A DNA stretch of 64,000 bases. Source: Dictyostelium discoideum (taxonomy: Eukaryota). The stretch lies in contig CM000151.3 of the NCBI GenBank assembly GCA_000004695.1, positions 2,144,001-2,208,000 of the forward strand. Reading direction: 5' to 3'. How positions within the stretch are numbered: position 1 is the first letter of the stretch; the number at the start of each line of letters is the position of its first letter. The notes beneath the pieces were generated by a model. That model searched no databases. It saw only the letters and a list, made by a program, of their open reading frames with translations, and was not told where the DNA came from. Both the position numbers and the translations under genes were made by a program. Shown here in pieces: positions 35,659 through 64,000 of the stretch.

Positions 35659-38600
35659 TATTTATTATTTTTATTCAAGTTATTTACCACCAAATTTATT
35701 AAGAAGTATTTTATTGCTATGAATCTTTTTTCTTAACATGAATGCTGCAATTATTAAAGCACAACCAACAACAGGTACAGTGACAGCAACTGGAATTAAC
35801 CAAGGTTTTTTATTTTCTTTGCCACATGAATCTGATGACTTAAAATCTGAATTAATAATAACTGAAAAATCTAAAAATAAAAAAAATCAGTATAAAAAGT
35901 AAAAAAAAAAAAAAAAAAAAAAAAAGATAAAAATTTATAAATACCTGGATCTAATAAACATTGATTACAATGAGGCATATCAAGTGAAATTAAAACTTTT
36001 TTATCATCTTTTGAAATTATTTTAGTGATTGTTGTTGTTGGTCTACCATCTGATAACATTTTATCTTGGAATCTACCATAAAGTGTTTTACCATTTTTAC
36101 TAATTTTAAGATAATTAACATTTTGTAAATTATTACTATTTGGTGATGTTTCTACATTTGTATGTTCACTATCTATACAATTATTAATTTTACCTTCAGT
36201 AGTTGAAATATCAGATGACATTTGGATTTGTAAAGTGTTTAGATTACTTTTATAATTCCAATTTGAAACTGATAATGAAAGTTTAAAACCATCTTTACTA
36301 ACTGTGAATTGATTACCTGCAAATGTAAATTCTTTACCATTGTTACTTTCAATATTTTCAATTGTCATTATAATGGTTGCATTATTAACAATTTGAGAAA
36401 ATGTTGAAATTAAAGAACCTGAACCAGTTAGGTTATTTGTAGTATTTGTAATTTTCCAACCACTTTTAAGATTGATTAAAGAGTTTGGTACTTGATTATT
36501 ATTTAAATCAATTTCAGCAATTGAATCAATATAAATTAAATATACAGTATCTTCATTTATAATGGTAGTTGTGCCGTCGGGATTTACCTTTGTTTCAGTT
36601 GGTGGTTTTGATTCACCAACATCCTTTGTTAAACAATCAAGACCAATGAAACCAGAATTACATTTACATTCACCATTTGAATTACAATTACCATTACCAC
36701 TACAATTATTTAAACAATTAATAGTTGATTCTGAATATGGATAAATTGAACCAGACCATGTAATATTATTTTGAATGATTTCAATATTCTTTAAACCAAC
36801 ACCTGGTGGGATTGAAATAACTATTGTTTCATTATCAATTGAGTTTATTGGTATTATTTCATTATCAAATGAAAATTGGAAATATTTATGAACATCACCG
36901 AAAAAACCTGATATTGAAATGTTACCACCAGAAGTGGATGGTACCTTACTTGATGACGATACATAATGATATGGAATTGTACAAATTTCATTGTCTAAGC
37001 TTGTCCATTTATTATTACATGTACATTGTTTAGTAGTTTCATTACAATATCCATTTTCAGGTTGAAGGTATGGATTAATTAAACCGGACCATGTTATACC
37101 ATTTTGGGTTACTTCAGTTTTTACAAAACCGAATCCTTTACCAATTTGAGCATAGATTGTATTTGAATTAATTGAATCTATAAGGGAGCTAACACCATTA
37201 AAGGAAACAGAAATACCCAAATGAATATCACCAAACCAACCATATAATTTGATTGCACCACCAGATTCGACTGGAACTTTGGTTGAGTTTGTTACATTAT
37301 GAATTGGGATTAAACAATCCTCACTAGTCCATTCTTTAAAACATGCACAAACACCCATATGATCATTACAAATTCCATTTGAATTACAAGTTGGATTTTT
37401 ACATGGAACAGGAGTATGAATTAAATTAAAGTAGGTTGTTGTACTTTTATCTTCAACCATAACTGTAAATGATTTATTACCATAGTCAACAATTGGATAA
37501 TTAATATCACAAATTATTTTATAGAATGTAGTTGATTTAACAATACAATCATTATTACCGATCTTAACATTTACAACTGATTTATCATAAGAATAATATT
37601 GACCAGTGATTTCAAATGTTGCATTATTTTGAATGATCGTATCGATTTGTGGTGCATTACCTGCGATTGAAACTGTGAAATTAATTCCTGGTATTAAAAA
37701 TCTAATTTGAATAATATCATATTGATTACTAGCAACACTAAAATATCCTGAAAAACTATCATTTAAATTATTTGAACTAAATTTAATTTCAGGATATGTT
37801 ACAATATTATCTAAATTTGTTCCAATATTTTTTCCAATTAATGTAACTCGTGTTGATGATAAATTTAAAAATTTATAAACATTTATTTGACCTTTTTTTT
37901 TTTTTTTTTTTTTTTTAAAAAATATAAAAATAAAAATTAGTTATTTTTTAAAAATTATATAAAATTAGTTAATTATTATTCTATTCAAACTTACCATCAT
38001 TACAAGTTGAAGTTAAATTATAATTTGAAAAATTATTACCAACTAATCTTCTTTGATATGTTGGATCTTGTAAATAACAATAATAGCAATCTGGTAAAGA
38101 TCCTGATAATAAATTATTTGAAACATCTAAACTAATTGAACACCATGATTCATCGATACTACCAGTTAGTTTGTTATTACTTAAAGTAGCAGTTTGAGTG
38201 AATGCTGATTTTTGTAATGTATCTTTTACAGATGGAAGATTACCACCAATTTCAGAATTTGATAATGAAAATTGTTGGGCTCTTTGAAAAATTGATAGAT
38301 CTGGTAATGTTGAAAAGTTTCCATTTTCAACTATAAAGTTACTACATGTACCTGTTGGTAATTTTGAAAATGGGAAATTACCATTAATATTGAATTTTTT
38401 ACCAGCATTTTTTAAAGAAAATGAAACAAGTGTTTGATTACTATTTGATAAATCAATATAATCAGCTGGTGGACCCCAATTTCCTTGTGTAAAATATCTA
38501 CATTTATTATTATAATTATTATTTTTATTATTATTATTCAAGATAACTTTTTGAAAAAAAAAAAAAATTAAATTAAATAAAAAACTTACATAGTACCCCA

Positions 38601-39684
38601 CATTGGATTAATAATATTAGAAAATTCAGTTGGGAAATTTAAAGGATTTGAATTTGAAAAACCCATTCCTATGTAAGTTAATTTACTAAAAGATAGAATG
38701 TTCACTAATGAAGATTGATTAAAATCATTTCCTAAATTGAAGCTTAAAGTCCTTAGAAAAGAAAGTGATGATACATCAGGTATATTTTTAGTATTAAAAA
38801 ATAATGATGAGAGTTTATTACCACTTTGATCACCATCAATTTCAATATCACATATTGCTCCCAAAACAGTGCTTTTTATTTATTTTTTTTTTTTAAAAAG
38901 AAAATATAAAAAATTGGGATTAATTAATTATATCTAATTGTTTTTTTTTTTTTTTTTTACCAAAAAATTTTAAAAAAAAAAAAAAAAAAAATTTATTAAA
39001 TAAAAATAAACTTACAAACTTGTTACATCTTTCAAATAAGATGCTTTAATATTCATGTGACTATTAATTCCTTCTCCTTGAAAATTAATATAAACATTAT
39101 CATATTTTGGAAGGACTTTATCAAATTCAAAGTATAGTTTATTGTGAATTGATAAATAGCCTATTGAGGGAATTGGAAAGTATGCAAAATTTTGATCTAC
39201 CGAAACTTCTGCCATATATAAATAGTAAAGTTTAGTGAACCCATTAAAATCACTCCAACTTAAAATTTCATTTGTTGTGGATCTCAATGTCCTAAAAAAT
39301 AAAAACAAAAGGAAAAAAAAAAAAAAAGTTAAAAAATACTACTAAATTGAAATTAATTTCTTGTTTTAAACATACAAAGATTCTAAATTTCCGTTGGAAT
39401 TACACCTTGAACCAAAAAATACCCCACTACATATTATTGTTTCAATGTTTGGTATATTAAGTTTTGTGTCATTAACTTTTTGAATAATACTATAAAGATA
39501 TGGTACTTTTTTTAATTTTTAAAATCAGTATTAAAAAAAAAAAAAAAAAAAAAAAAAAAAAATAATAATAAATATAAAAATAATTATAATAATAGTTACC
39601 CTCTTCAGAAACAAGATCAACAGAGTTTACAAAAGATATAAATGAAATCAAAAGGATAATTAATATTGGTAAATTGTATTTCAT
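35659..39684 (-). CDS. Large signal-peptide / LRR-like / IPT-TIG-like / EGF-like single-pass membrane glycoprotein, family copy 1; ~8 exons; main exon 35945..37891, last exon 35659..35870
   Basis: Signal peptide MKYNLPILIILLISFISFVNS starts at 39684. LRR-like ORFs lie at 39012..39308, 38586..38864 and 37981..38601 (GNLPSVKDTLQ..LSNNKLTGSIDESWCSISLDVSNNLLSGSLPDCYYCY). The main exon has Ig-like beta-rich repeats and EGF-like Cys clusters (CSGNGNCNSNGECKCNSGFIGLDC). Donor gtattt follows ..LLDPG. The final exon encodes a TM helix (WLIPVAVTVPVVGCALIIAAFML) and a short tail. The 5' exon boundaries are approximate. Confidence 0.6.
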
Positions 39685-39949
39685 TTTTTGTGTAATTTTT
39701 TTTTTTTGAAGTTTTCTGCTTTTGTTTTTTCTTTTTTTCTTTTTTCGAAACCAATCATATTCTAAAAAAAAAAAAAAAAAAGAAGAAAAAATTAAAACAC
39801 TGTTTTTTTTTTAGATTTTTTGTTTTTTTTTATTTTTTTTTAGATTTTTTTTGATATTTTTTTTTTTTTTATTTTATTTTTATTTTTTTTTTAATTTTAT
39901 TTTTTATGGTTTTCAAAATTTTTTTTTTTTAGACTTAAGTACTCTATTT

Positions 39950-62935: not shown

Positions 62936-63278
62936 TAATAAAAAAAAGAAAAAGAAATTCAAAAATAACATTAAAAAAAAAAAAATAAATGTTTTTCCCG
63001 TCACAGTATTTTTAAAAATTAAAACACTTTGTTGACCCCCTGATATGGTGTAATTTCGAAATATTGCAAATTTGGTTGGGTTTTACAATATCTTAAAAAT
63101 AAATGGTATTATGGAAATGAAAAAAAAAAAAAAATTAAGATATTTTTTTTTTGGAAAATAAAAAAAAAAATCAGATATTTACAAAAACAGAGTAAATATC
63201 TTTTTTTTTTTTTTTTTTTTTTTTTTAAAAATGTTAAATTTTTTTTTTTTTTTTTTTTTTAACTAAAAGAAGATCAAA

Positions 63279-64000
63279 ATGAAAAATAATGTTTTATTAA
63301 TTATCTTAATATTTTCTCTTTTTTTATCAGTTAATTGTAATTTATTATTATTTATTTTTTTTTTTTTTTTTTTTTTTATTATTCAAAATATATTAACAAA
63401 AATAAATTAATTACAGCATTAGACACATTATTATTAGAATCAAAACAATTAATTTCAAAAACTTATTCAATTAATTCAAGTAATTGCACGTATGAATATC
63501 TATTTGTATTTGAAGCATTTGAATTTTCTTCACTATCAAGCTCTAATCAAGTTAGCTATTATGGAGGAGATTCAATTGTAAATAATCAAGTTTCAATAAG
63601 AGTTTCTAATATATCAATAAGGGTTGGTTCAATGGATATGTATATTTCAATTCAAACTAAATCAAATAAAACATTTAATTTATTTATTTTATTAGACGAA
63701 TCATGTTCTGGTAAGTTAAAAAAAAAAATAAAAAAAAAATAAAAAAATAAAAAAAATTATTTAAAAAACTAATAATAATTAATTATAATTAAAAAAAACA
63801 AAAGAATTACCAAATAATCTTCAACCAAAATATTATTTTAATAAGTGGATAAATATTAAATCAAGATTATTAAAAGATCCCCCAAAACTTACGATGTATT
63901 TTGAAAAATTAAATGGTATTGGTAACCCTTCAAATTTTTTAATAACTGGAAATTTAATTAAAAATACATCTACATTCTATCAGAGAGAGTTTGAAACAAA
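63279..64000 (+). CDS. Family copy 4 (5' part only; continues beyond window): exons 63279..63336, 63417..63710, 63805..>64000
   Basis: Signal peptide MKNNVLLIILIFSLFLSVN has donor gtaatt. Exon 2 ..NCTYEYLFVF..LLDESCSG (donor gtaagt) is homologous to copy 3 exon 2 (..NCTYSYLLEI..ESPCSG). Exon 3 ELPNNLQPKYYFNKWINIKSRLLKD.. is homologous to copy 3 exon 3. Confidence 0.55.

Follow-up and report, generated by a model that had tools for sequence, protein, structure and literature searches.

We analyzed a 64,000-nucleotide stretch of AX4-type sequence from chromosome 2 of Dictyostelium discoideum (NCBI GenBank assembly GCA_000004695.1, contig CM000151.3, positions 2,144,001 to 2,208,000 of the forward strand; hereafter the window), which has a base composition of ~22% G+C and carries four related genes for large membrane glycoproteins, here called copies 1 to 4. 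These genes probably belong to the dictyostelid ComC family, copy 2 among them being a multiply disabled pseudogene. The cluster is made up of two old tandem pairs that have different ectodomains and lie in opposite orientation, and is not one uniform family. It evolves by birth and death, with different copies lost in different lineages. Because the ComC family and its founding member were already known, the current understanding is not overturned by these results; what is added is a corrected anatomy of the cluster, evidence for gene loss and gene conversion, and a structural lead.

Family assignment and protein architecture

The family assignment is based on the membrane-proximal domain ComC_SSD (PF22933, gathering score 24 bits), which was found above its gathering score in four of the four copies when they were searched with Pfam profiles: 298 bits in copy 3 (E = 2.7e-86), 161 bits in copy 1 (E = 7.4e-45), 100.8 bits in copy 2 (E = 1.1e-28) and 65.8 bits in copy 4, the last value coming from the full gene at locus L001 (protein P0009). 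Since all copies contain this domain, we assign them to the ComC family and not to the Tgr receptors. An earlier note on this DNA, made from the letters alone, had been unable to place the genes in any named family, but such a family is named in Pfam. Among 1.84 billion proteins, 328 representatives at 50% identity match ComC_SSD (170 at E <= 1e-10), and every sampled member comes from Dictyostelia (Dictyostelium species, Cavenderia fasciculata and Synstelium polycarpum). The distance from the end of the domain to the C-terminus is ~60-70 aa in most of the 150 relatives listed. The family was founded on comC, which is referred to as a Dictyostelium intercellular-communication gene (Kibler et al. 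2003, as cited in PMC8865844 and PMC4404348), and the literature on comC describes a developmental gene whose mutant aggregates aberrantly and which is conserved within dictyostelid group 4 only.

All intact proteins of the cluster are type I proteins with a signal peptide, 21-33 N-glycosylation sequons, 20-31 cysteines, one transmembrane (TM) segment and a cytoplasmic tail of 16-20 aa, which agrees with their earlier description as large single-pass membrane glycoproteins. A hydropathy scan detected the single C-terminal TM segment and flagged a hydrophobic N-terminus for copies 1 and 4; the signal-peptide exon of copy 3 was read off its sequence. Directly before the TM segment, all four copies have the invariant juxtamembrane motif LPHCxxxCxIDPDF.

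The two pairs differ in the remainder of their ectodomains. Copies 1 and 2 are of the LRR_ComC type, named after a leucine-rich repeat (LRR) domain (PF24141, gathering score 27) that reaches 128 bits in copy 1 and is also present in the orthologs of copy 2, the fragment left in copy 2 itself scoring 18.9 bits, below the gathering score. The order in copy 1 is signal peptide, LRR_ComC, Beta-sand_ComC_2nd (PF24143, 35 bits), two EGF/TIG-like modules, EGF, ComC_SSD, TM segment and a 16-aa tail, and its translation equals the AX4 protein XP_644971.2 (UniProt Q558U5) residue for residue. In copies 3 and 4, LRR_ComC is absent and the domains DUF7743, DUF7035 and DUF7034 stand in its place; the LRR is thus a feature of a subfamily and not of the family. 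Copy 3 consists of a signal peptide, ~440 aa without a Pfam match, DUF7743 (41 bits), DUF7035 (79 bits), DUF7034 (71 bits), a TIG-like/EGF region, ComC_SSD, TM segment and a 20-aa tail. The full gene of copy 4 (L001 15190-19608, 1387 aa) encodes DUF7743, DUF7035, DUF7034, the EGF-like DUF7949, ComC_SSD and the TM segment. Copies 3 and 4 are 41% identical over ~1050 residues (25% within ComC_SSD), and the similarity of copies 1 and 3 is confined to the C-terminal third, at ~30% identity.

For comparison between genomes, we used a second AX4-like assembly that is independent of the reference (GCA_054883475.1, locus tags ACTFIT_; 99.4-99.9% identity to window positions 25.6-64 kb, with differences nearly all in homopolymer lengths). 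The copy 2 locus was also taken from four other genomes, with the conserved neighbour RLP24 as anchor: ACTFIW (GCA_054859355.1, locus L005) and ACTFIR (GCA_054859385.1, locus L006), both labelled D. discoideum, D. firmibasis (locus L008) and D. cf. discoideum ACTFIZ (locus L009).

Gene models (Table 1) confirmed where the earlier note had placed the four genes: copies 1 and 2 occupy 35.7-42.8 kb of the minus strand, copy 3 occupies 58.09-62.94 kb of the plus strand, and copy 4 begins at 63,279, also on the plus strand. The single exon architecture that the note had ascribed to all of them was not found, as there are seven exons in copy 1, five in copy 3 and four in copy 4. A signal-peptide exon is common to all four, and a phase-1 intron at the DP/DF junction is common to copies 1-3. 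The described giant exon ending in DP(G), followed by a last exon with DFKSS, TM segment and short tail, exists in copies 1, 2 and 3 but not in copy 4, whose giant exon continues through DPDF into the TM segment and stop codon, with no DP/DF intron and no NDFKSS motif. No exon of copy 1 ends in ..CSG as had been described; the exon in question continues to ..NLES. As for the LRR/IPT/EGF composition given for the cluster, LRRs are confined to copies 1 and 2, and TIG was matched only below its gathering score (see below).

Besides copy 4 (L001 16057-19605), the DP/DF phase-1 intron is absent from D. firmibasis copy 2 (L008 3064-5022) and ACTFIZ copy 1 (L009 6420-9011), where the giant ORF likewise continues to the stop codon. 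This intron has been lost repeatedly, beside the gene-conversion tract described below.

Copy 2 is a pseudogene split by an insertion

The copy 2 pseudogene spans 45,652-40,424. It had been described as 5'-truncated, but exons 1-4 survive in damaged form at 45,652-44,951, upstream of a 2.2-kb insertion. Lesions were called relative to the intact ACTFIR ortholog. Exon 1 (45652-45568) is stopped by a TAA in its second codon, most of exon 2 is gone, the remnant of exon 3 (45379-45152) has 15-bp and 1-bp deletions, and the remnant of exon 4 (45100-44951) misses its first ~115 bp. Further downstream, exon 5 carries a 2-bp deletion near 42662 and a nonsense codon near 42400 (QS*YSF), and exon 6 has lost 10 bp near 42117 and 1 bp at 40828. 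In total, there are two nonsense codons, at least four frameshifts and deletions of exon sequence. There is one EGF/TIG-like module, compared with two in copy 1. All lesions are unchanged in GCA_054883475.1, with zero differences across 40424..42742, so they are not sequencing errors, and the frameshifts reported earlier are real.

A gene with about ten lesions and a 2.2-kb insertion hardly fits the label of a fresh pseudogene that had been given to it; yet the ratio of nonsynonymous to synonymous divergence (dN/dS) of its exon 6 against the intact ortholog is 0.24 (0.15 between two intact strains), which suggests, as a rough estimate from sequence divergence, that copy 2 was inactivated late on the AX4 branch.

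In the ACTFIT annotation, the two halves of copy 2 appear as separate protein-coding genes of 105 aa (L002 3766-4813; window ~45993-44946, minus strand) and 632 aa (L002 7042-9284; window ~42686-40444, minus strand). If introns bridged the apparent frameshifts, copy 2 could still be a functional, shortened 632-aa ComC_SSD gene, and both the low exon 6 dN/dS and an intact TM exon would fit such a gene. However, the called gene has no signal peptide, the original exon 1 being stopped at codon 2 and lying 2.9 kb upstream past the insertion. The exons that hold the nonsense codon and the 2-, 10- and 1-bp deletions form continuous open reading frames (ORFs) in three other genomes. A C-to-F change has removed one EGF cysteine, and copy 2 is nearly deleted in ACTFIZ. 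A functional 632-aa gene is thus very unlikely, and copy 2 is treated as a pseudogene in what follows.

The insertion is missing at copy 2 in ACTFIR and ACTFIW, where the flanks are contiguous (L006 and L005), and is present in both ACTFIT loci (L002 and L007). No second copy of it was found in the window or in the fetched loci, low-complexity matches apart. On the plus strand within the insertion, an ORF at 44158-44400 matches Dicty_CAD (PF05720; E = 1.5e-26, profile positions 20-82 of 82), which is the cell-cell adhesion domain of the DdCAD-1 family according to Pfam. We also considered a splice from an upstream mini-exon to this ORF, but every available GT donor is in phase 1, and none of the acceptors brings the sequence back into frame. 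Because the mini-exon cannot be joined in frame, the Dicty_CAD ORF is probably a gene fragment brought in by the insertion.

Gene conversion between copies 1 and 2

That copy 2 is nearly identical to copy 1 at its 3' end had been noticed before, and this holds: in AX4, the two are 98-99% identical over ~200 bp and 92-99% identical over ~420 bp, compared with 74-87% upstream (58-83% upstream of the copy 1 tract at 35945..36364). A very recent duplication or gene conversion had been offered as the origin of this near-identity, and only the latter stands. Although the 98-99% identity includes synonymous sites, as a very recent duplication would predict, such a duplication is scarcely credible. 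D. firmibasis has the two tandem copies, each of them intact, and hence the duplication predates the split of D. discoideum and D. firmibasis. As the duplication is old, the near-identity at the 3' end is attributed to gene conversion.

The distribution of divergence is in line with this. Upstream in exon 6, the paralogs are 14-37% apart in every genome examined, and divergence falls to 1-8% in the last ~400 bp. In this tract, paralogs within a genome are closer than orthologs between genomes: copies 1 and 2 of D. firmibasis differ by 4-8%, and the AX4 and D. firmibasis orthologs differ by 8-12%. The longest identical runs between copies 1 and 2 are 189 bp in AX4, 282 bp in ACTFIR, 145 bp in ACTFIW and 107 bp in D. 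firmibasis, longer in all four genomes than the maxima of 5000 permutations (74-93 bp over the four genomes; 81 bp in AX4). The same tract was homogenised independently in the three genomes other than AX4, and the 1-bp deletion at 40828 falls inside the AX4 tract. To judge from these patterns, the 3' half of the ComC_SSD-coding region of copies 1 and 2 undergoes recurrent gene conversion.

Turnover of the cluster across strains and species

Birth-and-death turnover, which the earlier note had proposed, is directly visible in the genome comparison as losses of copies 2 and 4. Copy 2 is intact in ACTFIR and ACTFIW (1029 aa in both; reading through the ACTFIR model gave 7 exons) and in D. firmibasis (1034 aa), whereas it is dead in AX4/ACTFIT and reduced to a ~800-bp remnant in ACTFIZ. 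AX4/ACTFIT and ACTFIW have an intact copy 4. The ACTFIR copy 4 (locus L003) has deletions of 77, 2, 1, 5 and 23 bp, one of which takes out part of the TM segment, and is annotated as two fragments. In D. firmibasis (locus L010), a cysteine-protease gene directly follows copy 3, and copy 4 is therefore absent.

The number of modules has changed as well. Copy 1 of AX4 and ACTFIZ has two instances of the G[WF]FGD motif that belongs to the TIG-like module, and copy 1 of ACTFIR and ACTFIW (L006 5154-9615 and L005 5146-9623) has three, together with a third tandem EGF/TIG-like module of ~370 bp. The orthologs of copy 1 are 1257-1260 aa long in ACTFIR/ACTFIW, 1268 aa in ACTFIZ, 1141 aa in D. firmibasis and 1136 aa in AX4. 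The locus is thus a compact and well-resolved case of turnover in a large lineage-specific surface-receptor family of social amoebae, and illustrates lineage-specific inactivation, change in module number, intron loss, and conversion confined to the membrane-proximal domain.

Selection and the question of Tgr-type receptors

To estimate dN/dS, AX4-like sequences were compared with ACTFIR and ACTFIW, i.e., three lineages. The values are 0.23 for copy 1, 0.45-0.49 for copy 3 and 0.22-0.29 for copy 4, with 0.22 for the neighbouring GCN2-type kinase gene. Synonymous divergence (dS) is 0.06-0.12, and the dN of the cluster genes (0.025-0.03) is 1.3-1.7 times that of the kinase (0.018-0.02). These ratios point to purifying selection, which appears somewhat relaxed in copy 3. 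As dN is only 1.3-1.7 times the value of the kinase and dN/dS is 0.22-0.49, the genes are not hyperpolymorphic.

A relationship to Tgr-type polymorphic allorecognition receptors had been put forward as a speculation, and several features might speak for it: the products are glycoproteins that cross the membrane once and contain beta-sandwich modules resembling TIG (with weak Pfam matches to it), gene content varies between strains, and comC has been placed genetically in a pathway with the lag genes, according to the title of Kibler et al. (2003). Nevertheless, it is highly improbable that these genes are Tgr-type receptors or close relatives of them. Matches to TIG stay below its gathering score of 20.9 bits (15.3 bits in copy 3 and 19.1 bits in copy 2), and a Pfam search of copies 1 and 4 at full length gave none at E <= 0.01. 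Their architecture is instead LRR_ComC or DUF7743/DUF7035/DUF7034 followed by EGF and ComC_SSD, the dN/dS values are those given above with a dN near that of the neighbouring kinase, and there is no divergently transcribed adjacent pair. Membership in the ComC family remains the preferred assignment.

A fused gene model in the reference annotation

Comparison of window positions 58089-64000 with L001 10001-19608 revealed that the AX4 gene model DDB_G0273015 (XP_644976.1, Q558U0, 2785 aa) is a chimera of copies 3 and 4. It runs from residues 21-1444 of copy 3, breaking off inside the TM segment, to residues 18-1387 of copy 4 (from exon 2), and includes neither signal-peptide exon. Three newer strain annotations have two genes here, of 1459-1470 aa and 1350-1387 aa. 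On sequence comparison, DDB_G0273015 is two genes. The corrections to the reference are thus that DDB_G0273015 represents two genes, that the copy 2 pseudogene reaches 45.65 kb, and that copies 1 and 2 are ancient paralogs.

Structure of the membrane-proximal domain and a possible mechanism

The ComC_SSD of copy 3 was modelled with AlphaFold2 from 38 dictyostelid sequences, giving a predicted local distance difference test score (pLDDT) of 85 and a predicted template modelling score (pTM) of 0.84. A Foldseek search placed the luminal domain of GLMP as the closest solved analogue of this model (E = 3.5e-5), followed by supersandwich domains of the galactose-mutarotase type from glycoside hydrolases and phosphorylases and by the periplasmic domain of YidC. 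When the full copy 3 protein was compared with all PDB sequences by phmmer, no match was found at E <= 0.01. We also considered an autoproteolytic GAIN/GPS or SEA domain at HCxxxCxIDPDF, and rejected it, as no GAIN or SEA structure was among the top 50-60 matches of either fold search.

In GLMP, which is a type I protein, the supersandwich lies on the membrane and the TM helix is packed against MFSD1, a transporter of the major facilitator superfamily (PMC11252000; PMC6819133). By analogy with comC, the intact proteins of the cluster are probably cell-surface adhesion or communication receptors. In such a receptor, ligand binding would fall to the variable N-terminal array of LRRs or beta-sandwiches, with the EGF/TIG-like modules serving as a stalk. 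The cytoplasmic tail has no catalytic domain, and for this reason the supersandwich-TM module would couple to a partner within the membrane; the structural model and the likeness to GLMP suggest that this module may dock to such a partner. A bolder version is that the supersandwich, TM segment and short tail form a GLMP-like accessory module docking on a polytopic protein (a transporter or receptor), and that the family of ~300 members provides interchangeable ectodomains on shared partners. We regard this version as quite a long shot. If it were true, a strain that loses a copy, as AX4 has lost copy 2 and ACTFIR copy 4, would sense a different set of social or environmental cues. The GLMP-like fold offers, in any case, a testable idea for how receptors with tails of 16-20 residues might signal.

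The main alternative to partner docking is a lectin-like role, in which the ComC supersandwich would be a carbohydrate-binding module for matrix or cell-surface glycans. This, too, seems unlikely, since in most of the enzymes with such a domain it is structural or oligomerising, the GLMP fold has been likened to a dimerisation domain (PMC11252000), and the ComC supersandwich is always found directly on the membrane.

Several observations weigh against the overall picture given here. One annotation pipeline treats copy 2 as a 632-aa gene, and DDB_G0273015 is mentioned by no paper in the literature searched. The likeness to GLMP is at the level of the fold only, with 10% identity in structural alignments, and many glycoside hydrolases and phosphorylases contain the same fold as a domain associated with carbohydrates. 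The model of the copy 3 ectodomain (giant-exon residues 1-799, 7 sequences) has a pLDDT of 35, too low for assigning folds to DUF7743, DUF7035 and DUF7034, and comC, the basis of the functional interpretation, is only ~30-40% identical in the shared C-terminal part. Moreover, the strains labelled D. discoideum that have an intact copy 2 differ from AX4 by a dS of ~0.06-0.12, the GCN2-type kinase included. Synonymous divergence at this level is far above the expectation within one species. Given such values, ACTFIR/ACTFIW may be a cryptic lineage, and the comparison with AX4 may be one between cryptic species and not within a population.

Feature coordinates and neighbouring genes

The coordinates of the features are listed in Table 1. 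The two pairs are separated by an acid-lipase-type gene (Abhydro_lipase) and by the GCN2-type kinase gene, probably ifkA, which encodes Pkinase, HisRS-like and anticodon-binding domains. Close relatives of RLP24 from several Dictyostelium species fall in its 90% identity cluster, so that it served well as a synteny anchor. The ACTFIT annotation joins a phosphomannomutase (PMM) domain to a polyketide-synthase model of 848 aa that extends past the locus edge (L002 22376-24002 and L007 17814-20633; window ~27.4-25.6 kb, minus strand), and other strains have a separate PMM gene of 231 aa (L005 17794-18758 and L006 17770-18720). This is probably another merged gene model.

Table 1. Features of the ComC-type cluster and its anchor gene, in window coordinates unless a locus is named.
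Feature	Position	Strand	Description
RLP24 ribosome-biogenesis gene	34490-35120	-	164 aa, one intron, Q86B05; directly downstream of copy 1
Copy 1	35683..39684	-	Intact, 7 exons, 1136 aa, canonical GT-AG introns; hand-built model
Copy 1 exons	39684-39600, 39505-39376, 39291-39016, 38871-38590, 38497-37995, 37891-35945, 35870-35683	-	
Gene-conversion tract, copy 1	35945..36364	-	C-terminal half of ComC_SSD; copy 2 partner ~40675-41096
Copy 2 pseudogene, 3' part	40424..42742	-	Rest of exon 5, exon 6, exon 7
2.2-kb insertion	42743..44931	.	Splits copy 2 at intron 4 / exon 5
Copy 2 pseudogene, displaced 5' part	44951..45652	-	Exons 1-4, damaged; aligned to the 1029-aa ortholog, L006 374-3955
Copy 3	58089..62935	+	Intact, 5 exons, 1470 aa; protein P0001 matches 100%
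Copy 3 exons (approximate)	58089-58157, 58292-58606, 58730-59056, 59149-62649, 62736-62935	+	
Copy 3 ComC_SSD coding segment	61950..62649	+	Used for the structure model; carries LPHCxxxCxIDP/DF
Copy 4, first three exons	63279-63335, 63419-63709, 63804 onwards	+	Runs past the window end; mapped with P0009

Comparison with known systems

The LRRs of copy 1 show the pattern LxxLxLxxNxLSGxLP of plant-type LRR receptor-like proteins such as BIR2, whose structure (PDB 6FG7) is their sole PDB sequence match, at a marginal E-value of 0.0018. Unlike the plant proteins, copy 1 has no kinase domain, and the rest of its architecture is unrelated.

GLMP, the accessory subunit of MFSD1 (PDB 6NYQ and 8R8Q), shares with the ComC proteins a glycosylated supersandwich followed by one TM helix and a short tail. 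The two differ in that there is no match at the sequence level (10% identity), that GLMP is lysosomal, and that GLMP has nothing N-terminal to the sandwich, where the ComC proteins have 850-1180 further ectodomain residues.

TgrB1 and TgrC1 (the lag family) are, like the products of this cluster, type I glycoproteins of social amoebae with beta-sandwich ectodomains, encoded by clustered multigene families with pseudogenes and strain differences. The cluster genes are set apart from them by Pfam content and dN/dS: they have ComC_SSD, LRR and EGF domains, no IPT/TIG repeats above threshold, and apparent purifying selection with no hyperpolymorphism.

The closest system is the ComC family itself. 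Its succession of LRR_ComC, beta-sandwich, EGF, ComC_SSD, TM segment and short tail recurs in copy 1 and in the intact copy 2 orthologs, whereas copies 3 and 4 have ~440 unassigned residues and DUF7743, DUF7035 and DUF7034 instead of the LRR. In addition, the copies described here contain 1-3 EGF modules, compared with the long EGF_TEN array of the paralog DDB_G0289863.

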